Source: an uncultured delta proteobacterium
GTDB taxonomy: Bacteria; Desulfobacterota; Desulfobacteria; Desulfobacterales; UBA11574
DNA length: 64,000 nt
Assembly: GCA_963790095.1 (NCBI GenBank)
Contig: CAWBNO010000012.1
Location: 146,997-210,996, forward strand
Reading direction: 5' to 3'
Part shown: positions 1 to 33,791 of the stretch, piece after piece
Layout: every line of letters begins with the position of its first letter
Position numbering within the stretch: position 1 is the first letter of the stretch
The notes under the pieces: model-generated
The model's database searches: none
What the model was told of the DNA's origin: nothing
What the model saw: the letters and a program-made list of their open reading frames with translations, nothing else
Translations under genes and position numbers: made by a program

Positions 1-736
1 GGATATTGTTTTCCAAAAGACGCAGGATCTGCATGCCGGCTTCTTTGGCCAGACGGATGCGGGCCGACATGACCGCCGGAATGGTGCCGTTGCCCGGAAG
101 GCCCATGCCCACGGCTTCCGTAAGGCAGTTCATGGAGTTGGCCGTAAACATGCCGGCGCAGGATCCGCAGGTGGGGCAGGCGGCGTCTTCCACCTGGGAA
201 AGCTGTTTTTCGGTCATCTCCCCGGAAAGGACCGCCCCCACGGATTCAAAGACCGTGATCAAGTCGATGGGGTCGGCTTTTTCAGGATGTTTTCCTGCCA
301 GCATGGGGCCGCCGCTGACCACGATGGCCGGCAGGTCGAGACGTGCGGCGGCCATGAGCATTCCCGGGACGATCTTGTCGCAGTTGGGCACCAGAACCAG
401 GGCATCGAATGCATGGGCCGTGGCCATGACCTCGATGGAGTCGGCGATGAGCTCCCGGCTGGCCAGGGAATATTTCATCCCTTCATGGTTCATGGCAATG
501 CCGTCGCAAACCCCGATGACGCCGAATTCGATGGGGGTTCCGCCCCCCATGTAGACCCCGGCTTTCACCGCGTCAACGATTTTGTCCAGATGAATGTGGC
601 CCGGGATCACCGCATTGACGGAATTGGCAATGCCGATGAGCGGCCGTTGGATTTCTGTATCGGTGTATCCCATTGCTTTGAACAGGGACCGGTGGGGTGC
701 TCGTTCTACGCCTTTTTTTACCACATCGCTTTTCAT
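1..736 (-). CDS. ilvD: dihydroxy-acid dehydratase, N-terminal ~245 codons (gene continues past the left window edge)
   Basis: Absent from the supplied ORF track (no stop inside the window). Minus-strand translation from ATG at 736 reads [50 protein letters not shown]...[31 protein letters not shown]...[19 protein letters not shown], the IlvD/Edd family pattern. GAGGAG SD at 746-751. Confidence 0.9.
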
Positions 737-750
737 TGGCTCGGTCTCCT

Positions 751-800
751 CAAAAAAAAACCGTTATCGGCCTTTGGGGCTGATAACGGTTTTTTTTTTG
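751..800 (-). terminator. intrinsic terminator hairpin (attenuator) immediately 5' of ilvD
   Basis: Minus-strand RNA reads A10-ACCGUUAUC-A-GCC-CCAAA-GGC-C-GAUAACGGU-U9. The U-tract abuts the ilvD SD. The flanking A-run and T-run make it formally bidirectional. Confidence 0.65.
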
Positions 801-825
801 GCTTGGTCAGAAAATTAGGCCATTA

Positions 826-915
826 TCAACCCTGTGCCTCGCAGTAGATAAGTACATCTACGACGAGGACGATAATAAGGCTAATAAGGTTGTTAATGGC
901 GAATAAATTTTTCAT
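826..915 (-). CDS. candidate ilv leader peptide, 29 aa (MKNLFAINNLISLIIVLVVDVLIYCEAQG)
   Basis: 14 of 29 residues are Leu/Ile/Val, including a run of 7. The stop codon lies inside an antiterminator segment (see finding). No convincing SD, hence moderate confidence. Confidence 0.45.
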   Translation of the reverse strand: MKNLFAINNLISLIIVLVVDVLIYCEAQG

Positions 916-1165
916 AATTGTCTACATCTTTGATTTAGAATACTCTACCTATTTGTTATGATTTAAATTGTCAAGCTTTTTTCTTGTTTTTTCTTGCAGT
1001 TTGCCCAACAGTGTCGAAATTTCCCACAAACTCCCGTTGCCGGCGAGCAAAGAAAAGAGCTTGGAAGGAAAGGACCCGGCGTTGGGGTCACCCCTGGAAG
1101 GGGATTGTTTTTCAATAGGTCAAGTGCCGAACATGGTGTGTTTATAATGAAAACGTGTTGCTCTT

Positions 1166-1217
1166 GGGTCGGACGAGCTAATATGCTTAAAATAAAGGTT
1201 TAAATTTAATTTTCGGG
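1166..1217 (+). repeat. unit-boundary direct repeat, copy A
   Basis: GGGTCGGACGAGCTAATATGCTTAAAATAAAGGTTTAAATTTAATTTTCGGG. Near-identical core to the copies at 1675, 2410 and 3624. Confidence 0.85.
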
Positions 1218-1645
1218 TTTTTTTCCAGAATTCCAACGAGCGTATACCATCGGAGTTTGAAATTTGCTGTCTGTATAAACTCCAGATGATGAATCATTGC
1301 CATCTACGTGAATATCGGTTATGGTTTGATATTGGTCGGTTATCGGATAGGGTATCTATAACTGTACATTTTTGCCATGGTCATGGGCTGACAGATCGAA
1401 CTCCATTATAATTTTTCCTGAAGCTGTCTTTGCCCATACATTAGAAGATAAAATCAGAAAGGTAATGGCAGTAATGTAAGTTAAGATATTTGCCCAAGGC
1501 TGGGCCCTCTGGCCCCGGATATTTACTTGAATGAAATATAATAATGATCTTGATATGAAAAGGTCAAATATTTAATATCCATAAGAAAGTCCAACAAATA
1601 GAATATTTCTATAAAGATAAAAAGGCACAACAAATCATTGAAGAA

Positions 1646-1738
1646 GGACCGACCCTAAAGCTTTGTATGCTTTAGGGTCGGACCAAGCTAATATGCTTAA
1701 AATAAGGATTAAAAATTAATTTTGGGGGAACATTTAAG
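1646..1738 (+). repeat. unit-boundary direct repeat, copy B, with an extra upstream inverted arm
   Basis: GGGTCGGACCAAGCTAATATGCTTAAAATAAGGATTAAAAATTAATTTTGGGGGAACATTTAAG from 1675. Bases 1646-1661 (GGACCGACCCTAAAGC) pair 15/16 with 1669-1684 across a 7-nt loop. Confidence 0.85.
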
Positions 1739-1844
1739 ACGTAGAATGACATTTTCCATAAATTGGGAATTAGACACCGCTATTCACCATTCAAGATGGG
1801 GTAGCATTCGCCAAAAAATGGTAGATCAAAAATAGGAGAATCTC

Positions 1845-2396
1845 ATGTTTAAAAAAATTCTATTATTTTCCATATTGTTAATTTTGTTTGGTTGCCAACA
1901 AGAAAAAACCGAATGGAATCCTATCTTCGAGGAAACGGGCTTTGATTATATTAACGTTGGCTTAGAGCGGTCGTTATCATTGATAGATGACGCATATTTA
2001 GAAGCAACCGAAAACGAGCAACCCTCTATTCAAGAAAAGCTATCCCAAGCTAAACATAGGCTGCTTGAAATAAAAGACTACTATGTTCCACTTACCACCG
2101 TGAGGCAAAAAATATACGATGCCGAACGATATTACAAATTGGAGGATATTAAAAAATCGAAAAAATTGCTCGAAGACTCAAAATCGATAATAACATCATT
2201 AGATTTGACAACAAAAAGCGAGAGTTTTGACAAGGTAATTTTAGACTTAAACTCAATGATCGATGAAGTAATTTCAACCTTTGACGAAAATTCAAAACCG
2301 AATACCAATAATAAAATGAAAATTTTAGGCGAGCATATAAACTTAATGCTTTTCAGAGGTGATCTTGTGCTTTCAGGGACTGAATTTGAGAAATAA
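1845..2396 (+). CDS. hypothetical lipoprotein
   Basis: 183-aa ORF with signal peptide and lipobox (LILFGC). GGAGAA SD ahead of the ATG. No recognisable family. Confidence 0.6.
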   Translation: MFKKILLFSILLILFGCQQEKTEWNPIFEETGFDYINVGLERSLSLIDDAYLEATENEQPSIQEKLSQAKHRLLEIKDYYVPLTTVRQKIYDAERYYKLEDIKKSKKLLEDSKSIITSLDLTTKSESFDKVILDLNSMIDEVISTFDENSKPNTNNKMKILGEHINLMLFRGDLVLSGTEFEK

Positions 2397-2409
2397 CTGC
2401 TGCGCTCTG

Positions 2410-2660
2410 GGGTTGGACCGAGCTAATATGATTATAAGCCATTTCAAAACCTTCCATTCGTTGGCTTGAGCCTTTTGTAAAGCGCTAAGCTCGCTGTGCT
2501 AAATTTGTAGAACTCGGGCTAACACCCTTAGACAGCTACAAATTTTACGCGCCGCATCGCTAAGCGCTTTTCGACAAAAGACTCAAAAATCACTCACCGG
2601 AAGGTTTTGAAATGGCTTCTAAAATAAAGATTAAAATTTAACTTTGAGGTGCCATTTAAG
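2410..2660 (+). repeat. unit-boundary direct repeat, copy C, split by a 185-bp insertion
   Basis: Left part 2410-2434 is GGGTTGGACCGAGCTAATATGATTA. Right part 2620-2660 is TAAAATAAAGATTAAAATTTAACTTTGAGGTGCCATTTAAG. Joining them restores the consensus. Confidence 0.8.
2435..2619. mobile_element. MITE-like non-autonomous element (about 185 bp, long imperfect palindrome)
   Basis: Perfect 20-bp terminal inverted repeats AAGCCATTTCAAAACCTTCC (2436-2455) and GGAAGGTTTTGAAATGGCTT (2599-2618). The interior is also self-complementary. TA on both flanks (2433-2434, 2620-2621). No ORF. Confidence 0.55.
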
Positions 2661-2727
2661 GCTTGGCGTGACGATTTTGATAATTTAAAGGCGCTTTTAA
2701 AGGGGATCGGAAGAAAGGTTGAATTTT

Positions 2728-3648
2728 ATGGAAGAGAACCCTAGAACTTGGGCGGCACAGCGGGGTGCGATCAAACGGGCAGAGCATCAGCTCCTGGATC
2801 ATCCCAAGGTCTTGAATGATGCCCTCGCACTTCGCATCATCGGCAAAGATAGTGATTCGATAATGGAAGCTGAAATACTTCAATCCAAGGCCTCGCCCCT
2901 GTCGCCGTGCCTGCGAGCTACCACCGTCGTACGAAGTCGGTTTGTGGAGGACAAACTCGACCTCGGCGTTCGACGTGGGGTATGCCAGTATGTCATTTTA
3001 GGTGCAGGTCTCGACACCTTCGCCTACCGAAATCCGTATCCCGAAGGCATACTGCAGGTGTTCGAAGTCGACCACCCCATGACCCAGACGTGGAAGCGAG
3101 ATCGCCTGGAGGAAGCCGGGATTACACCCCCAAATGATCTAACGTTCGCACCGGTCGACTTTGAAACCCAGACCCTCATGGAGGGGTTGGGGGATGCCGG
3201 CTACGATCCAGGCAGACCCACTTTTTTTTCGATGCTCGGTGTGACGCCATATTTGACCATGGAGGCGGTGATGGCGACCCTGGGTTCCATCGCCATGGCC
3301 CCGGAAGGAAGCGAAATCGTCTTCGATTACATGATTCGGCCGTCTTTGCTAAATTCTGATCAGCAATCGTTCTTCCAAGCGTTTTCCCAAAAGGTCGCAT
3401 CGGTTGGAGAGTCGTGGCAAACATTCTTCGATCCTGAGGTGTTGAAACAGGATCTTCGGGCCATGGGGTATGGATATGTCGAGGACAGTAGGCCGGAAGA
3501 GATCGATGCTCTCTACTTCAAAAACCGAAAAGACGGGCTTCGGGTCTGGAAATTGACGCATTTGATGAACGCCAGGGTTGGAGATGTCAAGGATGCTGCT
3601 GAACATGCCCCTTTGGGGTCCTGTGGTCGGACCGAGCTAATATGCTAA
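2728..3648 (+). CDS. class I SAM-dependent methyltransferase (leucine-carboxyl/O-methyltransferase-like family)
   Basis: Motif VILGAGLDTFAYR plus EVDHP are typical of this family. The last 8 codons and the stop lie inside repeat copy D. Confidence 0.8.
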   Translation: MEENPRTWAAQRGAIKRAEHQLLDHPKVLNDALALRIIGKDSDSIMEAEILQSKASPLSPCLRATTVVRSRFVEDKLDLGVRRGVCQYVILGAGLDTFAYRNPYPEGILQVFEVDHPMTQTWKRDRLEEAGITPPNDLTFAPVDFETQTLMEGLGDAGYDPGRPTFFSMLGVTPYLTMEAVMATLGSIAMAPEGSEIVFDYMIRPSLLNSDQQSFFQAFSQKVASVGESWQTFFDPEVLKQDLRAMGYGYVEDSRPEEIDALYFKNRKDGLRVWKLTHLMNARVGDVKDAAEHAPLGSCGRTELIC

Positions 3649-3662
3649 AAATAAATACTAAA
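3624..3662 (+). repeat. unit-boundary direct repeat, copy D (5' part only, then diverges)
   Basis: TGGTCGGACCGAGCTAATATGCTAAAAATAAATACTAAA. Confidence 0.75.
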
Positions 3663-3811
3663 TAGCGTGCTTTCCCCCCGCCGTTTTCCCGGGAGCGGTA
3701 TACCTAAGCCGACGGTGCCGGCACCCAAAAAAATATCCGGTAGACAGGTGCGTAATATCTTGCGAAACATAACGGCGTGTTGGTTTTAAACAAATTATAG
3801 GAGACTTGATA

Positions 3812-4660
3812 ATGGTAGATCAGAAATGGTTAACAACTTCTGCCGGCGTTAAAATGCCACGAATTATTTACGGCACGGCCTGGAAAAAAGACCGCACGGC
3901 AGACCTGGTGGTGAAGGCCGTCCAAGCAGGATTTAGGGGGATCGATACCGCCTGCCAACCGAAACACTATAACGAGACACTGGTGGGAGAAGCCCTTGTG
4001 AGGCTGAAAAATCACGGCATCGAACGTGAGGCCCTTTTCCTACAAACCAAATTCACGCCCCTTTCTGGTCAGGATCCAAGACAAGTGCCATACGACAAGA
4101 ATTCCCCGGTTGAGTTGCAGATCGCCCAATCCTTTGAGACATCGAAAAAAAACCTGCAAACAGAATATGCGGATTCTCTAATACTTCATTCACCCCTGGC
4201 ACCCCACACGCTTTTGATGAAGGTGTGGAAGGCCATGGAAAAAATTCAAAAGGCGGGTGGAGCGCGTCAGTTGGGAATCAGCAACTGTTACGATATTAAA
4301 GTGATACAGTCACTCTATGCCGATGCCGACGTGAAGCCCGCGGTTGTACAAAATCGTTTTTATCCGGAAACGGGGTATGATGCGGATTTGCGTCGCTGGT
4401 GCTCTCATCATGGCCTTATTTACCAGAGTTTTTGGACCCTTACTGCAAATCCCCATATTCTGGCCAGCCCTACCGTTCGAACCGTTGCTCACAAGTATAA
4501 CAAAACCGAAGCGCAAATATTTTTTCGATATCTCAGTCAATCCGGTATTGTGCCGCTGACCGGAACGTCTTCCGAGCTGCACATGGAAGAAGACCTTAGC
4601 ATCTTTGATTTTGAGCTTTCTTCCGAGGATTTAAAGAATGTGAGTCTCCTGCTAAATTAG
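3812..4660 (+). CDS. aldo/keto reductase family oxidoreductase
   Basis: AGGAGA SD at 3799-3804. Translation MPRIIYGTAW...GFRGIDTA...LHSP...LGISN has the AKR fold pattern. Confidence 0.85.
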   Translation: MVDQKWLTTSAGVKMPRIIYGTAWKKDRTADLVVKAVQAGFRGIDTACQPKHYNETLVGEALVRLKNHGIEREALFLQTKFTPLSGQDPRQVPYDKNSPVELQIAQSFETSKKNLQTEYADSLILHSPLAPHTLLMKVWKAMEKIQKAGGARQLGISNCYDIKVIQSLYADADVKPAVVQNRFYPETGYDADLRRWCSHHGLIYQSFWTLTANPHILASPTVRTVAHKYNKTEAQIFFRYLSQSGIVPLTGTSSELHMEEDLSIFDFELSSEDLKNVSLLLN

Positions 4661-4933
4661 GTGAAACCCGACGATGGACCTCGACGTGGGAATCGCCGAT
4701 GCTCTTCCGCGGGACACATCTCTCAATTCGGCCACAGTTTGCCACTCTATTATGAAGCAAATCAAAACCATCGCAAGCATGAAAGGGTAACACTCAACTA
4801 TCTCAAGGTGATTTTTCTTGTGCAAATCGCCGAACCGCTATATGACGGTTCACTTGACGCCGGGAGCTTATAGGACCCCAAGAGCGAGTTTAGCGGCGAG
4901 GCGGGTGACTTTGACGAGATGGATAGGAACACT

Positions 4934-5602
4934 ATGAAAAAACGAACATTATTATCGTGGAGTAGTGGAAAAGATAGTGCCTGGGCGCTCCATGTTCTGC
5001 GCCGGCAGTCTGATATAGACGTTGTCGGGCTTTTCTCCACGGTCAACCAGGAATTTGAGCGGGTGGCTATGCACGCAGTAAGAAACGAACTGCTGCAACA
5101 ACAGGCGGAAAATGTGGGGCTTCCCATTCAGGTTATACCCATACCCGACCCGTGTAGTCATGCTGAATATGAAAACATCATGGGTGAATTTATAGCCCAG
5201 GTAAAAGAACAGCGGATTGGCTGTATTGCCTTTGGCGATCTATATCTTGAAGATATACGCAAATATAGAGAGGAGAAATTGGACGGTACCGGGATCACAC
5301 CGATCTTTCCTCTGTGGGGCAAAGATACCGAGGCGTTATCCAAGGAAATGGTGGAATGTGGCCTTCGGGCAATCATTACCTGTATTGATCCCCGAAGCAT
5401 GCCGCCGGCCTTTGCCGGAAAAGAATATAACGCATCATTTCTCGAACAAATTCCCGCCGGCGTAGACCCCTGCGGAGAAAACGGCGAGTTCCACAGCTTT
5501 GCCTTTGACGGTCCCATGTTCAAAAGAACAGTTAATATACGGGTAGGAGAAACGGTATCTCGTGACGGTTTCATATTTGCGGATTTATTCGCCTTCGCCT
5601 GA
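4934..5602 (+). CDS. PP-loop ATP pyrophosphatase (MJ0570/Dph6-related, DUF71-type)
   Basis: N-terminal LLSWSSGKDSAWAL PP-loop motif. An alternative start at 4919 is possible. The last 6 codons lie inside the 67-bp repeat at 5585. Confidence 0.75.
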   Translation: MKKRTLLSWSSGKDSAWALHVLRRQSDIDVVGLFSTVNQEFERVAMHAVRNELLQQQAENVGLPIQVIPIPDPCSHAEYENIMGEFIAQVKEQRIGCIAFGDLYLEDIRKYREEKLDGTGITPIFPLWGKDTEALSKEMVECGLRAIITCIDPRSMPPAFAGKEYNASFLEQIPAGVDPCGENGEFHSFAFDGPMFKRTVNIRVGETVSRDGFIFADLFAFA

Positions 5603-5651
5603 ATACCCTGCAGCTTGTTGGAGTGAAACGGAAATCCCGCCCATCGGGGCT
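5585..5651 (-). repeat. 67-bp repeat, inverted copy 1
   Basis: Its reverse complement AGCCCCGATGGGCGGGATTTCCGTTTCACTCCAACAAGCTGCAGGGTATTCAGGCGAAGGCGAATAA matches 9278-9345 at all but 3 positions. Confidence 0.9.
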
Positions 5652-5855
5652 CTATGGGGATTCCAACCTTTTTCAAATCCGAATTATCTGTGCAAAAAGT
5701 CGGTAGATCGGCATAGACGTTGTGGAAGTTGCCCCAAATTATGATTTTTCAGAGAGCACTCAAAATTTGGCGGCATTTCTTCTGGATAGATTTTTCCTCC
5801 TGTATAAGGACTTTTGACATGTCGGTGCGACCATGAGAAAAAGAGAATAAGAAAG

Positions 5856-7037
5856 ATGTCTTCGATGACCATTAGAAGAAAAAAACGGAAAGCGGCAGTA
5901 TATCAATATCAGAAGGATGGCCGTTATTTTGCCCAGATCGCCGACAGCATAAAACAAGCTGGTGCAGAGGAACTGGCCGAACTCGGCGCCGAAGTTGTCC
6001 GGCCGGAATTCAGCGGAATTCATTTCAGAGCGGACAAATCAACCCTGTATCGAATTAATTATCTGACCCGACTTCTTTCTCGCTGCCTTGCGCCGTTGAT
6101 ATCATTTTCTTGTTCGGATACCGATACGCTGTATGGTATGGCCAAAAAAATCGCGTGGGAAGATTTTTTTGCCAGAGGCAAAACTTTTGCCGTATCGGGG
6201 TCTGTTTCCGACAGCGCGATTTCCCATTCAAACTATGCTGCTCTCCGCCTTAAAGATGCAATTGCCGACCATTTCAAAGAAAAAACCGGTCAACGTCCGG
6301 ATGTGTCGGTACGAAATCCGGATATCCTGCTGAACCTTCATATCAGAAAAGACAAGGCCGTCATAAGCCTCGACACCTCCGGTGGCGCGCTTCACCGGAG
6401 AGGATACAGAGAGGAGACTGTTTCGGCGCCGATGCAGGAAACCGTCGCTGCCGCCATGATCCGATTCAGCGGATGGGACGGTTCCGTTCCTTTATACGAT
6501 CCTTTGTGCGGTTCGGGAACCCTTTTGTGTGAAGCGCTCATGGGGTATAGCCGTATTCCTGCGGGTGTTTTCAGGAATCGATTCGGTTTTGAAGGCCTGC
6601 CCGACTTTGACGGCGCTGTTTGGAAGCAGGTGAAAAAAGAGCTTGACGGACGCATCCGGGAACTGCCCAAAGGGCTTATTGCAGGCAGTGATGTGTCCCC
6701 GGAGGCGGTCAGTGCGGCGCGGACCAACCTCATGGGGCTCCATTACGGAAATAGGGTTAGCGTTGAAAGGGCGGACTTTAGAGAGCTGCCCCTCCTTGAA
6801 GCCCACGTGATCGTAACCAATCCGCCGTATGGCATTCGGATGGGGGGAGACGAAAACCTTAAAATGTTTTATAAGAATTTCGGGGATTTTCTGAAGCAGA
6901 AATGCAAAGGCTCGACCGCTTTTGTTTATTTCGGAGAACGGAAGTACATCAAAAACATCGGGCTGAAAACATCATGGAAAAAACCGATCAAGACCGGGGG
7001 CCTTGACGGCAGGCTGGTTAAATACGAGATTTACTGA
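5856..7037 (+). CDS. THUMP-domain N6/N2-type RNA methyltransferase (RlmL/RlmK N-terminal-like, COG0116 type)
   Basis: CGSGTLLCEA SAM-binding motif and VTNPPYGIRMG catalytic motif. Start uncertain (5814, 5856 or 5865). Confidence 0.8.
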   Translation: MSSMTIRRKKRKAAVYQYQKDGRYFAQIADSIKQAGAEELAELGAEVVRPEFSGIHFRADKSTLYRINYLTRLLSRCLAPLISFSCSDTDTLYGMAKKIAWEDFFARGKTFAVSGSVSDSAISHSNYAALRLKDAIADHFKEKTGQRPDVSVRNPDILLNLHIRKDKAVISLDTSGGALHRRGYREETVSAPMQETVAAAMIRFSGWDGSVPLYDPLCGSGTLLCEALMGYSRIPAGVFRNRFGFEGLPDFDGAVWKQVKKELDGRIRELPKGLIAGSDVSPEAVSAARTNLMGLHYGNRVSVERADFRELPLLEAHVIVTNPPYGIRMGGDENLKMFYKNFGDFLKQKCKGSTAFVYFGERKYIKNIGLKTSWKKPIKTGGLDGRLVKYEIY

Positions 7038-7254
7038 GAACGCCAAGGGGCCTATGCGCGTTTCTATGACTCAGGGCATGACGCTGCCGATGTCATTGAC
7101 GACGTCAACTGGCCGGCGTACTGGTGCGGCATCGGCAAAATGGACAAAAATGAATATATTGACTGCGTCAACGCCTATTGACGGCCAAGAATAAAGGCCC
7201 GCGATGTCCTGTTAGGCGCACCAGTATCTGCAAATAAACAAAGGAGGAAGAATA

Positions 7255-7534
7255 ATGAAAAGAGCAATCTATTCGTTGATCGGACTGATTGTGCTGGTGT
7301 CTTTCAGTGCCGCCACCGAGGGCTCGGCCGTCAGCGGTGACCTTGCCCAGCAGAAATTGATTGATGGGAATAAGCGATCCCTTGGACAATGCCGTTAGAG
7401 CTAATGTCACTATGGTTGTTCAGCAGGTGAAGTCCTCGGAACCGATCTTGGAAGGACGGGTCAAGAAAGGCGACTTGACCGTTGTCGGTGCACGTTATGA
7501 TCTGAATGATGGCGTGGTGGCAATTCTCCCATAG
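7255..7534 (+). pseudogene. beta-carbonic-anhydrase remnant with a large internal deletion and a frame change
   Basis: AAGGAGGA SD, signal peptide and QQKLIDGNKR (CA N-terminus) run to a stop at 7396-7398. A second frame from 7385 gives VRANV...EPILEGRVKKGDLTVVGARYDLNDGVVAIL (CA C-terminus). The catalytic core between them is missing. Confidence 0.6.
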
Positions 7535-7828
7535 TTGTCAATGAACGGGAGACGGGGCACAGCAACATAAATAACCTGGCAAAATGAGTTTAAAGACTAT
7601 AATGATCAGCATTTCCAGACTGTTTCTCTGCTCGGATGGAATTGACCCCAAGTGACATCATGAAAATAGTGAAAACAGCCATGTTATTTGCCCAATGGGA
7701 AAGCCGAGAATGCCGTATCTCGAGCGTTGCCATAGGTTCGCAGTAAATTTACTGATGCAGTAAAGAATGGCGATGGTTTATCGTGCTGATTTTTTTCCAA
7801 TTACGTCTTACCAACAAACTGAATACAT

Positions 7829-8242
7829 ATGTTGCGAATATCGAATCAAGTCACGATCCCTGCCGGTGATATCAAGATAAGCACGATCCGCGCTCAAGGG
7901 GCCGGCGGTCAGAATGTCAATAAGGTTTCTACGGCCGTGCACTTGCGGTTTGACATTAACGCTTCATCCATCCCCGATTATTATAAAAAGCGACTTTTGA
8001 AGCTGGCCGACCAGCGTATTACCAAGGAGGGTGTCATCGTTATCAAGGCCCAGGAGCACCGAAGCCAGGAAAAGAACAGGGAGACGGCATTAAGACGGCT
8101 CCGGGAGCTCATTAAAAGCGTGGCGGTGTCGCCCAAAAAACGCCGGCCAACCAAACCGACCCGGGGCTCTCAAAAAAAACGACTTGACCGAAAAAGCAAA
8201 AGAGGGCAGCTTAAAGTTTTGAGAGGAAAGATTGCCGATTGA
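7829..8242 (+). CDS. arfB: alternative ribosome-rescue factor ArfB (peptidyl-tRNA hydrolase, YaeJ type)
   Basis: 137 aa with a GGQ motif (AQGAGGQNVNKVSTAVHLRFD) and a basic C-terminal tail. Confidence 0.85.
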   Translation: MLRISNQVTIPAGDIKISTIRAQGAGGQNVNKVSTAVHLRFDINASSIPDYYKKRLLKLADQRITKEGVIVIKAQEHRSQEKNRETALRRLRELIKSVAVSPKKRRPTKPTRGSQKKRLDRKSKRGQLKVLRGKIAD

Positions 8243-8306
8243 AGATCAACGGCATGGACCGGCCGGACCCCAAATGGTTCGGCATCTTGGAAGCGAGGAA
8301 CGTTCA

Positions 8307-9254
8307 ATGAACCCTATCCCTTTCCCGGAATTTCTTGAGGAAAATCCATTCATCCTCGGCGAGGGGGCTGTCATCGAGCGCCTGCGCCGAAACAGCGATT
8401 TGGAACTCGATCCGAATATCGTCAACTCAGCATTTATCTATGACCCATCGAAGCGTGTTGCCCTGGAGTCTATCTATCGGGGGTACCTGGACATCGGCTT
8501 TCAGTATGATTTGCCCCTCCTCCTATCCACTCCAACCTGGCGGGCCAGTCGGGAACGGATCGAAGCTGCAGGTTATGGGGGGAAGGACGTGAACGGCGAC
8601 AATTTCCGATTTCTTGAAACATTGCGGAACAACTACGGTCCGTATGCACGGAAGGTCGTTGTCTGCGGCTTGCTGAGCTGCCGTGGAGATGCCTATAATC
8701 CAGCTGAAGCACTTACGGCCGCCGATGCCCATGAGTTCCACACATGGCAGGCCATGATGTTGGCGGAAGCCGGCGTCGATTTCCTCCTTGCCGCCACGTT
8801 GCCGGCCCTCAGCGAGGCCACCGGACTGGCATCGGCCCTGGGCGCCACCGGCAAGCCGTACATGGTCAGTTTTGTGGTTCGTCCTGAAGGCACACTTCTT
8901 AACGGTACGCCCCTGAAGGAGGCCATTGCTGCCATCGATGCCGCAGTCAGCCCAAGACCGATGGCCTATCTGGTCAATTGCACCCACGCCTCTATATTCA
9001 GAGCCGCCCTTCTGCATAAAGTCAATTCATCTTCACGCGTTAGGGATCGCGTCGTCGGACTCCTGGCCAATACGGCGGCGCTCAATCCTGAAGAATTGGA
9101 CCACAGCGTCCATCTCGTGGCGGAAGCGCCTGAAACTTTCGGCCAATCCCTGGCTGGCCTGCACGGGGAACTCGGCATGAAGATTCTGGGGGGCTGTTGC
9201 GGAACGGACGACCGGCATATCCGCTATCTCGCATCGCGTCTTGCCTCGGTGTGA
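8307..9254 (+). CDS. homocysteine S-methyltransferase family protein
   Basis: C-terminal GGCCGTDDRHIRYL zinc/Hcy-binding motif and an internal NCTH motif. GCGAGGAA SD ahead of ATG 8307. Confidence 0.8.
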   Translation: MNPIPFPEFLEENPFILGEGAVIERLRRNSDLELDPNIVNSAFIYDPSKRVALESIYRGYLDIGFQYDLPLLLSTPTWRASRERIEAAGYGGKDVNGDNFRFLETLRNNYGPYARKVVVCGLLSCRGDAYNPAEALTAADAHEFHTWQAMMLAEAGVDFLLAATLPALSEATGLASALGATGKPYMVSFVVRPEGTLLNGTPLKEAIAAIDAAVSPRPMAYLVNCTHASIFRAALLHKVNSSSRVRDRVVGLLANTAALNPEELDHSVHLVAEAPETFGQSLAGLHGELGMKILGGCCGTDDRHIRYLASRLASV

Positions 9255-9277: not shown

Positions 9278-9345
9278 AGCCCCGCAGGGCGGGATTTCCG
9301 TTTCACTCCAACAAGCTGCAAGGTATTCAGGCGAAGGCGAATAAA
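9278..9345 (+). repeat. 67-bp repeat, copy 2
   Basis: AGCCCCGCAGGGCGGGATTTCCGTTTCACTCCAACAAGCTGCAAGGTATTCAGGCGAAGGCGAATAAA. Inverted partner of 5585-5651. Confidence 0.9.
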
Positions 9346-32286: not shown

Positions 32287-32856
32287 ATGATCGATCCGTC
32301 GTCATTGGCATTTGATATTGATGGTGTTTTTGCAGATACCATGACGTTGTTCCTGGATATAGCACGGGAAGAATATAACATAGACCGTGTCAAATACGAA
32401 GATATTACCTCTTATACTCTGGAAGAATGTATCGATATGGAGCCGGCGCTTATCGGCGCTATTATCGGAAAGATAATGGATGGAAGTCATAAAGCCCCAT
32501 TAAAACCCATAGCGGGCGCCGCCGACGTCTTAACCCGGTTGGGCCGGCTTTACAGGCCGATTCTGTTTGTTACTGCCCGGACGTACGCGGCTCCCATCTA
32601 TGACTGGATACAGAGTGTACTGCCTTTCGATCCGAGTTCCATAGAAGTTGTTGCCACCGGTTCGTTTGAAGCCAAGGCAGATGTCCTTTTAAACAAAGAT
32701 ATCGCTTATTTTGTGGAAGACAGACTTGAAACCTGTTTTCCCCTTCAGGCGGCGGGGGTAACACCCGTTCTTTTCAAGCAGCCCTGGAACAGAAAGCGTC
32801 ATCCCTTCATGGAAGTCGGCACTTGGGAAGAACTCGAATCGCTGATTGAATTTTGA
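32287..32856 (+). CDS. HAD-superfamily phosphatase (5'-nucleotidase-like)
   Basis: FDIDGVFADT motif I. Confidence 0.6.
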   Translation: MIDPSSLAFDIDGVFADTMTLFLDIAREEYNIDRVKYEDITSYTLEECIDMEPALIGAIIGKIMDGSHKAPLKPIAGAADVLTRLGRLYRPILFVTARTYAAPIYDWIQSVLPFDPSSIEVVATGSFEAKADVLLNKDIAYFVEDRLETCFPLQAAGVTPVLFKQPWNRKRHPFMEVGTWEELESLIEF

Positions 32857-33791
32857 TGATTTCATCTTCTTTGAAAAATCAAATCCGCGCCTTTATCGAT
32901 GCCCTTTCCGCTGAAAAGGGGTATTCAGCAAATACTTGTCGCGCGTACTCGCACGACCTTAATGAGTTTGCATCTTTTATTTGTGAAAATCGCTTTTCAA
33001 AAAAGAAGGATTCAAAGGACGCCGATACCTTCAGGGCCCATCAGGTCGACAGCCTGATGATAAGAGAGTATCTGGGATTTTTACACAAGAAGAATAAAAA
33101 GGTTACCCTGGCCAGAAAGCTCTCGGCGTTACGTTCGTTTTTCAGATATCTTGTCAAGCATGGGGTTATACAGGATAGTCCTCTGGACCTGATTTTGACG
33201 CCGAAACAGAAAAAAACGATTCCAGTGTACCTTCCTGTGGACGATATTTTCAGGCTGCTCGATTCAATCAAGACCGATACACTGGGGGGCACCCGGAACC
33301 TTGCCATTTTCGAAACACTCTACTCCACCGGGATACGCATTTCCGAACTGACCGGCCTGAATGTCTATGATGTGGATTTCGAACAGTGTTTAATCCGTGT
33401 GCTCGGAAAAGGTGACCAAGAGCGAATCGTGCCTGTGGGAAAGAAGGCGGTAACGGCTATCCAGGATTATAGAAAGCGATTACACCAGAAAAAGGGCATC
33501 GGGACTGAAGAAAATTCGCCCCTATTTTTAAACAAGAACAACGGGCGTCTCACCACCCGATCCATCGCCCGCATTCTTGATCACATATCGAAAGAATGCG
33601 GCCTGTTGATTCCGGTTTCGCCCCATGCCCTGCGTCATACGTTTGCCACCCATATGCTCGATGCCGGGGCGGATTTGAGAGTGGTTCAGGAGCTTTTGGG
33701 TCACAAAAGCCTTTCCACCACACAAAAATATACACACGTGAGTATCGACAGGTTGATGGAGACATATGACAAGGCCCATCCAAGACGATAA
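32853..33791 (+). CDS. xerC: tyrosine recombinase XerC
   Basis: HALRHTFATHMLDAGADLRVVQELLGHKSLSTTQKYTHV. xerC-hslVU synteny. Confidence 0.85.
   Translation: MMISSSLKNQIRAFIDALSAEKGYSANTCRAYSHDLNEFASFICENRFSKKKDSKDADTFRAHQVDSLMIREYLGFLHKKNKKVTLARKLSALRSFFRYLVKHGVIQDSPLDLILTPKQKKTIPVYLPVDDIFRLLDSIKTDTLGGTRNLAIFETLYSTGIRISELTGLNVYDVDFEQCLIRVLGKGDQERIVPVGKKAVTAIQDYRKRLHQKKGIGTEENSPLFLNKNNGRLTTRSIARILDHISKECGLLIPVSPHALRHTFATHMLDAGADLRVVQELLGHKSLSTTQKYTHVSIDRLMETYDKAHPRR

Follow-up and report, generated by a model that had tools for sequence, protein, structure and literature searches.

Why does one short segment of DNA recur four times, always on the same strand, between unrelated genes that are themselves co-oriented? 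The question arises in a 64-kb stretch of a Desulfobacterales-like genome (hereafter the window), in which an AT-rich, strain-variable interval between ilvD and rlmL has the look of an array of single-gene cassettes. A sequence-only reading had described it in these terms and had offered three options for the repeat, namely a recombination site, a mobile promoter/terminator module or a REP-like element. Rather than sites at which gene cassettes recombine, the repeats are probably old, transposase-less relics of the left end of a RAYT-like Y1 element, lodged in a strain-variable hotspot. Four such ends, each on the + strand, are present in the window; two of them (copies B and C) are complete, and the other two (copies A and D) are cut.

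The number and placement of the copies are well defined. A search with nhmmer found four same-strand copies within 2.5 kb and no further match in the 64 kb, in agreement with the positions and orientation first proposed. The 22-mer GGTCGGACCGAGCTAATATGCT, allowing up to 3 mismatches, matches at 1676, 2411 and 3625, with 0 matches expected in shuffled sequences, and the 3' half of the repeat matches at 1189, 1699 and 2621. Copy A (1166) has lost 1 nt. The repeat is real, but the 50-75 nt originally assigned to it are too short, as copies B and C extend to ~125 nt each, up to ~1800 and ~2703, and end ~25-45 nt short of the next start codon; only the first 52 nt of copy A and the first 38 nt of copy D are left. 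Copy C is split by an insert of 187 nt, bounded by inverted termini of 24 nt, which fits the definition of a MITE (short, inverted termini, TA duplication) and is missing from a contig that is 99% identical (L039); unlike a MITE, the 125-nt copies themselves have no inverted right terminus. ORF 994..1203 does have its stop codon inside copy A, as does the methyltransferase gene inside copy D, and the AT-richness judged by eye is borne out by calculation (34.5% G+C at 1218-2396 vs 47% for the whole window). The supposed decayed unit (1218-1645) indeed lacks an intact ORF, with the correction that it holds a fragment of a minus-strand gene with an in-frame stop. The paralogous copies are 77-91% identical to one another and therefore give no sign of recent activity, and copies C and D are also found in relatives whose genes are 88% identical; the copies are evidently old. 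With a GC skew of +0.05 across the whole window, the strand that bears the copies is the G-rich one. The features of the array are collected in Table 1.

Table 1. Features of the repeat array, in window coordinates.
Feature	Position	Strand	Description
Copy A	1158..1217	+	Terminal repeat (1-nt deletion) and ~35 nt of leader; truncated after ~52 nt, abutting unrelated minus-strand DNA; E = 0.01 with the intact-elements-only profile
AT-rich filler	1218..1644	-	No intact ORF
Secreted-protein gene, N-terminal fragment	~1218-1480	-	Truncated where copy A begins or ends against it; TAG stop in frame (six-frame translation)
Inverted duplicate (16 nt) of the outer edge of copy B, GCTTTAGGGTCGGtCC	1645..1660	-	Head-to-head doublet with copy B; 15/16 complementary
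Copy B	1668..1800	+	Complete left end (terminal repeat, AT-rich spacer and CTTAG..TTTT block); without transposase gene; profile positions 3-154
Lipoprotein-like gene	1845..2396	+	Signal peptide plus Cys; no Pfam match
Copy C, 5' part	2403..2431	+	Terminal repeat plus GCTAATATG
MITE-like insertion in copy C	2432..2618		187 nt; inverted termini 21-24 nt; TA target duplication
Copy C, 3' part	2619..2703	+	Remainder of the leader
LCM-family SAM methyltransferase gene	2728..3648 (alternative start 2719)	+	306 residues
Copy D	3616..3662	+	Terminal repeat and only ~20 nt; E = 6.6e-5 with the intact-element profile

The earlier suggestion to search for a Y1 (IS200/IS605-type) transposase provided the key, as the repeat matches the terminal repeat and leader of a RAYT-like Y1 element. 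This insertion-sequence-like family is ~0.93 kb long and carries a single gene, which encodes a RAYT-like Y1 (HUH) tyrosine transposase. Its left end comprises an 18-20-bp terminal inverted repeat, GGGGTCGGACCAAGCTAA, an AT-rich spacer and a conserved CTTAGAaCC..TTTTTGAC-GGCAAAAA block that reaches the start codon. In contigs L016, L030 and L033-L038, intact Y1 genes lie between inverted copies of GGGGTCGGACCAAGC(TAA) at both ends; the gene of the intact relatives encodes ~268 residues, and their inverted repeats of 15-19 bp begin with GGGG. Six intact left ends are colinear in alignment with the consensus and with copy B. A profile built from six intact elements only, all from other metagenomes, matches exactly the four copies in the window, with E values from 1e-8 to 0.01 (E = 1.1e-8 and 102/114 positions covered for copy B). 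These comparisons show homology between the repeat and the left end of the intact elements.

The transposase scores 37.2 bits against Pfam Y1_Tnp (PF01797; cutoff 23), and its best NCBIfam family is REP_Tyr_transpos at 63.8 bits, which is below the equivalog cutoff of 80 for that family. The motifs HVH and Y(IDLNMVRAG) can be read from its sequence. Its 7989 homologs, many of them called RayT by JGI and many on short multi-copy contigs, indicate that TIRYT/TIRtron elements form a large family. The C-terminal 140-residue extension matches no Pfam family even at E <= 10, and no C-terminal HTH domain was detected in it. A conserved stem predicted in the intact elements, which would occlude the start codon, showed compensatory changes at 0/13 pairs.

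The repeat had been described as delimiting the 3' end of single-gene units. Instead, it corresponds to a transposon's 5' (left) end, after which relatives have the transposase start codon. In four related contigs (L018, L020, L021 and L027), the sequence next to the 125-nt repeat is ATGGCAAGGGCAAACCGATACTACATACCGGG, encoding MARANRYYIPG, with unrelated DNA beyond it; these 11 codons are the first of the transposase, whose conserved N-terminus they represent (MARANRHYIPGQ...). Such stub-type copies additionally carry a conserved AT-rich stretch of 170 nt, with TTGACA-like hexamers, ahead of the next gene. Searches of the 64-kb window with tblastn and hmmsearch, the decayed unit included, found no Y1 transposase gene, and behind the exact 125-nt leader variant only the 11-codon stubs were found, with no intact transposase gene. 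Both results were counted against a relic origin, together with a terminal motif, GGGGTCGG, that agrees with GGGGWSAS at only 7/8 positions (G for A at position 7), the undetected C-terminal HTH and a leader promoter that the consensus scan does not support.

The genes between the copies argue against their description as cassette units, since the lipoprotein-like and methyltransferase genes have the same tight boundaries elsewhere without the repeat. The lipoprotein-like gene has 109 homologs of constant length and occurs repeat-free in L042-L044; upstream DNA proper to it begins by 1816, and an exact-protein look-up of the ORF returned no record. Homologs of the methyltransferase are typically 284 residues long and cover 93% of the query, and its own upstream DNA starts from ~2704, the position at which homology to L040 begins. 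Its C-terminal 22 residues are a read-through extension ending in copy D, and the methyltransferase of L041 ends after ..NARV. To judge from these comparisons, the stop codon within copy D is incidental and follows from the loss of the native stop, which added 22 residues to the usual 284. Neither copy C nor copy D is present in L041, and L040 has D without C. Copy D is kept at the same position in every close relative of the methyltransferase gene.

What lies around the copies does differ from one close strain to another. The window diverges from L028/L032 (98.5% identical) beginning a few nucleotides before copy C, the DNA upstream of copy C differs in L039, and in L015 and L019 the point of divergence is within the repeat; the methyltransferase module has at least 4 different left contexts. 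In these alignments, the copy edges are points of difference between close strains. Because the copies coincide with junctions of strain difference, the impression of variable units was partly right. The right boundary ...TTTTAAAGGCAAT(C) is nearly identical in several independent contexts, and in related genomes the ~125-nt upstream segment precedes at least 5 non-homologous genes, almost all neighboring genes pointing in the same direction as the repeat. Across ~90 kb of related loci, only left-end copies in direct orientation were found and no right-end relics. This pattern counts against a relic origin in its simplest form, as whole elements decaying at random would leave relics of both ends and only left ends are seen; simple decay does not account for the shared right boundary either, which speaks for a discrete unit or for selection.

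In exact-pattern searches, which may miss variants, the repeat was found at a single locus, in a related MAG, among 185,579 species genomes and on 19 contigs of the metagenome collection, and it was not found in viral contigs or plasmids. A 20-mer scan of the genome collection returned one real relative and 12 chance matches. Genes neighboring the repeat in related contigs are typical accessory or defense-like genes (TIR, FRG, HTH antitoxin-like, DUF4062).

Survival of left ends but not right ends is what would be expected if the full copies were kept as a portable 5' module, in which the transposase promoter or leader drives the replacing gene, the gene starts ~20-45 nt further on and selection retains the left end. 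At least 4 unrelated downstream genes starting soon after a near-identical right boundary, the co-orientation of nearly all neighbors with the repeat and the TTGACA-like hexamers of the stub-type copies speak for such a module. Nevertheless, a simple consensus scan found no sigma-70-like promoter in any copy in the window, which also removes support from the extended -10 that had been suspected in the repeat. Furthermore, copies A and D, of 52 and 38 nt, are without the leader and have nevertheless been retained, D in every relative, and the methyltransferase and lipoprotein genes possess upstream regions of their own of 25-30 nt, with which they function elsewhere repeat-free. We consider this explanation unlikely as a separate account; it is compatible with a relic origin and does not propose a different source for the repeat. 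A second account, which we regard as improbable, retains the notion of cassettes and replaces the chemistry: a Y1 enzyme acting in trans, from a TIRYT gene elsewhere in the genome, would nick one strand at a fixed point in each left end, and the DNA between direct copies would leave as a single-stranded circle and re-enter at another copy, as an analogue of an integron. If true, this would amount to integron-like gene shuffling without a tyrosine recombinase or attC, and it would account for the one-orientation, left-end-only pattern and the recurrent sharp boundaries. HUH chemistry demands direct copies confined to one strand, and all the copies are of this kind; modules of leader, methyltransferase and 38-nt repeat recur across contexts; the points at which strains part are the edges of the repeat or positions near 33-38 within it; and the neighbors are of the accessory or defense-like kind. 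Against it, the divergence of the paralogues offers no trace of recent activity, the break points vary (left edge, ~33-38, ~52 and ~125), the repeat variants co-segregate with neither neighbor, the same genes move repeat-free, the ends of intact elements are inverted rather than direct, and the window yielded no transposase gene.

Recombination by tyrosine recombinases fares worse. Tandem site-specific integration of small elements yields direct repeats around modules, and in L025 a Phage_integrase-family gene (73.8 bits) lies ~400 nt upstream of the first repeat, so that the copies could be att sites used by an island recombinase (the L025-type integrase or an Xer-type enzyme). We find this very improbable: the array in the window has no integrase close to it, the transposon end explains the whole repeat, including the transposase start codon in relatives, and beyond the 4-1-4 GGTCGGACC there is no dyad-symmetric core-type site. 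The earlier statement that no integrase or transposase is present holds for IntI and for Y1 genes and needs correcting for one Xer-like ORF at 32853-33791, the sole tyrosine recombinase ORF in the window, 29 kb from the array. An integron cassette array minus its integrase (CALIN) with unusual attC sites would match the co-oriented genes, the conserved 40-125-nt repeat between them and the strain-variable content, but its probability is negligible. In accordance with the sequence-only reading, no copy contains an RYYYAAC / GTTRRRY pair and no IntI was found in the window; additionally, the consensus does not fold better than shuffles as single-stranded DNA on either strand (z -1.6/-1.1), and homology ties the repeat to a transposon end. 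As RNA, the repeat gave a z of -0.02. The hairpin formed by copy B with its extra arm (1645-1660) was confirmed, with a 13-pair stem at 1649-1681 that the terminator scan reports as a minus-strand terminator-like hairpin; its single-strand z falls from ~0 for copy B alone (-0.06/+0.21) to -4.1/-4.7 only with the arm. The scan found no terminators in the copies apart from this doublet. An Rfam search over 1-9000 at E <= 1 returned no family. Three further readings were weighed from the sequence and dropped (a DGR-type template/variable repeat pair, a 3' fragment of a tRNA or tmRNA, and a dif/Xer site), because the hallmarks of each are missing and the transposon end fully explains the repeat.

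Among described systems, Y1 genes with flanking terminal inverted repeats are known as TIRYT genes and TIRtrons, whose repeats occur as single, dimeric or clustered units (Di Nocera et al. 2013, PMC3733652), and TIRYT genes have been assigned to subclass 2.1 (Quentin et al. 2018, PMC6006769). Most described TIRtrons share the terminal GGGGWSAS motif, subclass 2.1 proteins have a C-terminal HTH-like domain, and no transposition mechanism for these elements is described in PMC3733652 or PMC6006769. The relic family is probably a further case of this known but obscure architecture. Its intact relatives consist of a single Y1 gene between inverted repeats starting with GGGG, and its gene-free repeats are single, in a head-to-head doublet (copy B and its arm) or clustered. 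In contrast to TIRtrons, the unit repeated here is the whole left end, leader included (up to 125 nt), in direct orientation throughout and ahead of unrelated genes, and the window is without a transposase gene; the family may also differ in its terminal motif, which matches GGGGWSAS at 7/8 positions, and in its C-terminus, where no HTH was detected.

The REP-like element was the nearest of the three original options. As in REP/REPIN systems with RAYT (TnpA-REP), the closest named protein family is REP_Tyr_transpos / RayT, the gene lies between inverted repeat copies, and solitary intergenic copies stand just past stop codons. However, REP sequences are imperfect palindromes of 20-40 nt that carry a GTAG or CGTC tag, whereas the repeat has neither such a tag nor a stable palindrome, a hairpin forming only in copy B with its arm, and REP sequences are dispersed in extragenic space and high in copy number, whereas the present repeat is low in copy number, clustered, long and inclusive of a gene leader. 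IS200/IS605 elements belong to the same superfamily (PF01797), transposase-less derivatives (PATEs) are a known outcome in that group, and the confinement of the copies to the G-rich strand, in one orientation, agrees with the strand bias known for single-strand transposition. They differ in having subterminal hairpins and no terminal inverted repeats, where inverted repeats and no significant hairpin are found here, and unlike PATEs the present derivatives retain one end only. Integron arrays and CALINs share the unrelated co-oriented genes, the conserved repeat between them and the strain-variable content, and differ in their attC cores, folded bottom strand and IntI, none of which was found here; moreover, the repeat here is a transposon leader on the 5' side of the gene that comes next, and elsewhere the genes are found repeat-free. 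Putative mobile promoters, reportedly described by Nijveen, Matus-Garcia and van Passel in 2012 as identical upstream regions before non-homologous genes, resemble the single conserved ~125-nt segment before non-homologous genes; they differ in that the present repeat has a clear transposon-end origin, its truncated copies are leaderless and the scan predicts no promoter.

If the copies are relics of a Y1 element, a plausible course of events can be outlined. Elements or left-end derivatives would have entered the intergenic DNA of the hotspot in one orientation, and this single orientation would fit strand-specific, single-strand HUH transposition, given that the G-rich strand is the one with the copies. 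Later, the part encoding the transposase would have been replaced or deleted, time and again, with the left end staying in place. The relics would now be passive, serving as portable homology and as junctions for the exchange or deletion of neighboring modules, and the two full copies may lend the leader or promoter of the transposase to the gene that replaced it.

The locus and its relatives form a natural derivative series with a common left boundary, varied right boundaries and strain differences at the copy edges. This series could guide the mapping of cleavage sites and could test whether one end can propagate alone. It also calls for caution in annotation, as a repeat between co-oriented accessory genes may mimic a cassette array and yet consist of orphan transposon ends.

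The repeat array described in the sequence-only reading is real, with several details corrected. Matches to the 5' 22-mer of the repeat (at most three mismatches) were found on the + strand at 1676, 2411 and 3625, and its 3' 29-mer was found at 1189, 1699 and 2621, with zero matches to either in dinucleotide shuffles; copy A (1166) is distinguished by a 1-nt deletion. When the entire 64 kb was searched with a profile, four same-orientation copies, A to D, were recovered and none besides. Alignment of copies from the window and related contigs gave a unit of about 125 nt, GCTCTGGGGTCGGACCGAGCTAATATGCTTAAAATAAAGATTAAATTTTGATTTTGAGGGGACATTTAAGGCTTAGCGTGACGTTTTTCATACTAAAAAGACGCTTTTAAAGGCAAT, instead of the 50–75 nt proposed, and copies A and D are truncated (see table). 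The left edge of the unit is constant in all contexts and the upstream DNA varies; downstream, the unit is followed by five or more unrelated genes across contexts. As had been noticed, ORF 994..1203 has its stop codon within copy A and the methyltransferase ORF within copy D, and the AT-richness judged by eye was borne out (34.5% G+C at 1218–2396 vs 47% window-wide). The extra hairpin arm at copy B was also recovered: positions 1645–1660 are complementary to the start of the copy (13-pair stem in the scan), and the single-stranded DNA fold reaches z = -4.1/-4.7 with the arm, compared with about 0 without it.

Each of the four copies is the orphaned left end of a TIRYT element, in which a RAYT-like Y1 (HUH) transposase gene is flanked by terminal inverted repeats. 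In four related contigs (L018, L020, L021 and L027), the 125-nt unit is followed by about 25 nt more and then by ATGGCAAGGGCAAACCGATACTACATACCGGG, reading MARANRYYIPG, before unrelated DNA begins. In two others (L016 and L030), a diverged repeat precedes an intact 268-residue gene starting MARANRHYISGQVWHITHRCH. The encoded protein matches Pfam Y1_Tnp at 37.2 bits (cutoff 23). Among NCBIfam models, REP-associated tyrosine transposase scores best, but its 63.8 bits fall short of the equivalog cutoff (80). A homolog search at E <= 1e-20 gave 7989 proteins, many of them labelled RayT by JGI and nearly all starting with MARANRH(Y/H)IPGQ. Four further intact elements were obtained through these homologs (L033, L036, L037 and L038), and in all six the Y1 gene lies between inverted copies of GGGGTCGGACCAAGC(TAA), 15–19 bp long. 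Copy B and the consensus could be aligned block by block with the left ends of all six intact elements; in order, the blocks in common are the terminal repeat, a spacer rich in A and T, the CTTAGAaCC..TTTTTGAC-GGCAAAAA block and finally the start codon. An independent profile, based solely on these six left ends and including none from the window or from contigs with the window-type repeat, gave exactly four matches in the 64 kb. The suggestion that the repeat might be REP-like and lead to a Y1 transposase proved fruitful; no Y1 gene lies within the window.

Repeat copies, intact-end profile matches and other small features of the window
Feature	Position	Strand	Description
Copy A	from 1158	+	keeps ~52 nt
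Copy B	1668 to ~1800	+	full length
Copy C	2403–2431 plus 2619 to ~2703	+	full length, split by insert
Copy D	3616–3662	+	keeps ~38 nt
Intact-end profile match	1673–1770		E = 1.1e-8; 102/114 profile positions
Intact-end profile match	3622–3665		E = 6.6e-5
Intact-end profile match	2406–2438		E = 0.0024
Intact-end profile match	1166–1214		E = 0.01
Secreted-protein gene, N-terminal fragment	1218–1480	-	..ITFLILSSNVWAKTASGK..VQL*IPYPITDQYQ..
MITE-like insert in copy C	2432–2618		187 nt; 21–24-nt inverted termini, TA target duplication
68-nt inverted repeat pair	5584–5651 and 9278–9345		95.6% identical

The names TIRYT and TIRtron, the latter for the whole unit, were given by Di Nocera et al. (2013) to RAYT-related Y1 genes with terminal inverted repeats, not REP hairpins; a GGGGWSAS motif is common to many TIRtron repeats, and some TIR repeats form families of singles, dimers or clusters (PMC3733652). 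Most TIRYTs fall among the TnpA-REP-like proteins of subclass 2.1, characterised by a C-terminal HTH-like extension (Quentin et al. 2018; PMC6006769). The present family likewise has a Y1 gene, GGGG-starting inverted termini and a long C-terminal extension. The fit is less certain in two details: GGGGTCGG agrees with GGGGWSAS at seven of eight positions, and the last 139 residues of the Y1 protein gave no Pfam match. Neither PMC3733652 nor PMC6006769 describes a transposition mechanism for the TIRYT family. The locus adds a new member to a known, little-studied class of elements, and no new kind of system is required. REP identity itself was rejected, as the repeat has neither a GTAG or CGTC tag nor a stable palindrome and its copy number is low. 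IS200/IS605 ends are hairpins, whereas the present ends are inverted repeats; therefore, they are not typical ends of that family.

One scan of species-representative genomes returned a single genuine relative, a Desulfobacterales MAG (L003) with genes 88–91% identical to those of the window, and one metagenome scan found the repeat in 19 contigs. Related contigs are mosaics of common segments, with genes of accessory or defence-like type (TIR, FRG, HTH antitoxin-like, DUF4062). Repeat edges mark junctions of strain-variable DNA. Two related loci (L028 and L032) are 98.5% identical to window 1–2400 and diverge a few nucleotides before copy C; because their continuation, ATGCATCGCCACCGGCTTCA, is also present in L043, it represents the native 3' flank of the lipoprotein gene, and hence the window carries a deletion or replacement ending at the outer edge of copy C. 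Another locus, L039, matches the window at 99% identity beginning at 2620; its copy C is intact, with different DNA in front of it. L015 and L019 have in common the gene upstream and the repeat's first ~33 nt and diverge from there, and the unit of copy C, methyltransferase and copy D has at least four different left and three different right neighbours. A 63-nt segment at 1071–1132, just upstream of copy A, is 86% identical to L040 3240–3301, directly upstream of a Diphthami_syn-like gene, a further sign of a mosaic region. In contig L024, both ends lie in one 164-residue gene, 141 nt apart (vs L014 1574–1716), which suggests an assembly break at a repeat and possibly a tandem arrangement of gene X, two genes, repeat and gene X.

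The impression of cassettes was therefore sound in that content differs between close strains at repeat edges, but the genes between the copies are independent of the repeat, which is not their delimiter. Methyltransferase homologs typically have 284 residues and the window clade 306. The L041 homolog (76% identical protein) terminates with ..NARV, and copies C and D are both missing there; in the window GGA stands in place of that stop, and the frame continues for 22 codons into copy D, which makes the stop inside the repeat incidental. L040 (93% identical DNA) has copy D without copy C, its homology beginning at 2704, 25 nt before the methyltransferase ATG. By eye, the 3' UTR of the distant homolog in L041 (~5830–5880; CCTGTGCTTGGACACAAACGATCTGAAAAATA) resembles a very decayed copy D; nhmmer detected none there, and if real, the association of D with the methyltransferase would be ancient. 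For the 183-residue lipoprotein-like gene, 109 homologs were found, constant in length and some with a weak YfdX-like Pfam tag; its neighbourhood differs in each genome examined. In L042–L044 (82–89% nucleotide identity), the neighbours all differ, the repeat is absent, and homology covers little more than the ORF, with 29 nt ahead of the ATG and 4 nt past the stop; the gene thus behaves as a single-gene module with no repeat attached. The supposed decayed unit does contain a broken frame (in-frame TAG), but this belongs to a minus-strand gene fragment, which breaks off where copy A ends and has no Pfam match.

The window copies are old. Copies B and C are 77% identical over their full length, the first 44 nt of the paralogous copies are 83–91% identical, and copies C and D were already in place before the split from relatives with 88% identical genes. 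Related loci totalling ~90 kb yielded left ends and no right-end relics; the left ends are all in direct orientation, and nearly all point the same way as the genes on both sides. Several contexts have nearly identical right boundaries of the repeat. This left-end-only, one-orientation pattern is not explained by simple decay, and in a variable island it offers a useful natural data set for TIRYT transposases. GC skew is positive on the + strand across the entire window, which would place the copies on the lagging-strand template strand. IS200/IS605-type Y1 transposases reportedly favour that template, a preference attributed to Ton-Hoang and colleagues in 2010.

We propose that elements or left-end derivatives entered the intergenic DNA of a hotspot in one orientation, and that the transposase and right end would then have been replaced by other DNA. 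The residual 40–125-nt homologies may now be passive break and join points at which neighbouring modules are deleted or exchanged, and the two full copies may lend a transposase leader to the lipoprotein and methyltransferase genes. A selected portable promoter would be compatible with this origin and is the least improbable addition, albeit an unlikely one. It is improbable that an active HUH-driven cassette system operates here: the locus has no sign of recent movement, bar the unrelated MITE in copy C. Use of the copies as att sites by an island integrase is very improbable. A phage-type integrase occurs in L025; the sole tyrosine recombinase ORF of the window, at 32853–33791 and 29 kb off, has an Xer-type domain pair (312 residues, Phage_int_SAM_1 and Phage_integrase) and is probably a housekeeping XerC/D unrelated to the repeat. 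Hardly any weight can be given to an integron or CALIN, in agreement with the earlier judgement that no integron is recognisable. The array has a cassette-like look; attC identity was rejected, since the RYYYAAC/GTTRRRY pair is not conserved and single-stranded folds on both strands are no better than shuffles (consensus z -1.6/-1.1; copy B -0.06/+0.21; RNA fold z -0.02), and no integron integrase lies in the window.

Ends are duplicated in other members of the Y1 element family too: right ends occur as two tandem copies 121 nt apart in L033 (6811–6940) and as a solitary copy in L036 (1438–1446), 2.3 kb upstream of the intact element. Where the MITE sits in the window, L039 (99% identical) has an empty site, AATATGAT-TA-AAATAAAG; no further copies of the MITE were found in the window or any fetched locus. 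In the 68-nt inverted repeat pair, one arm overlaps the 3' end of a Diphthami_syn-like ORF and the other lies just past a homocysteine methyltransferase gene. In L031 and L039, an extra copy has inserted in the gap separating rlmL from the Diphthami_syn-like gene, and the sequence thus looks like another small mobile repeat.
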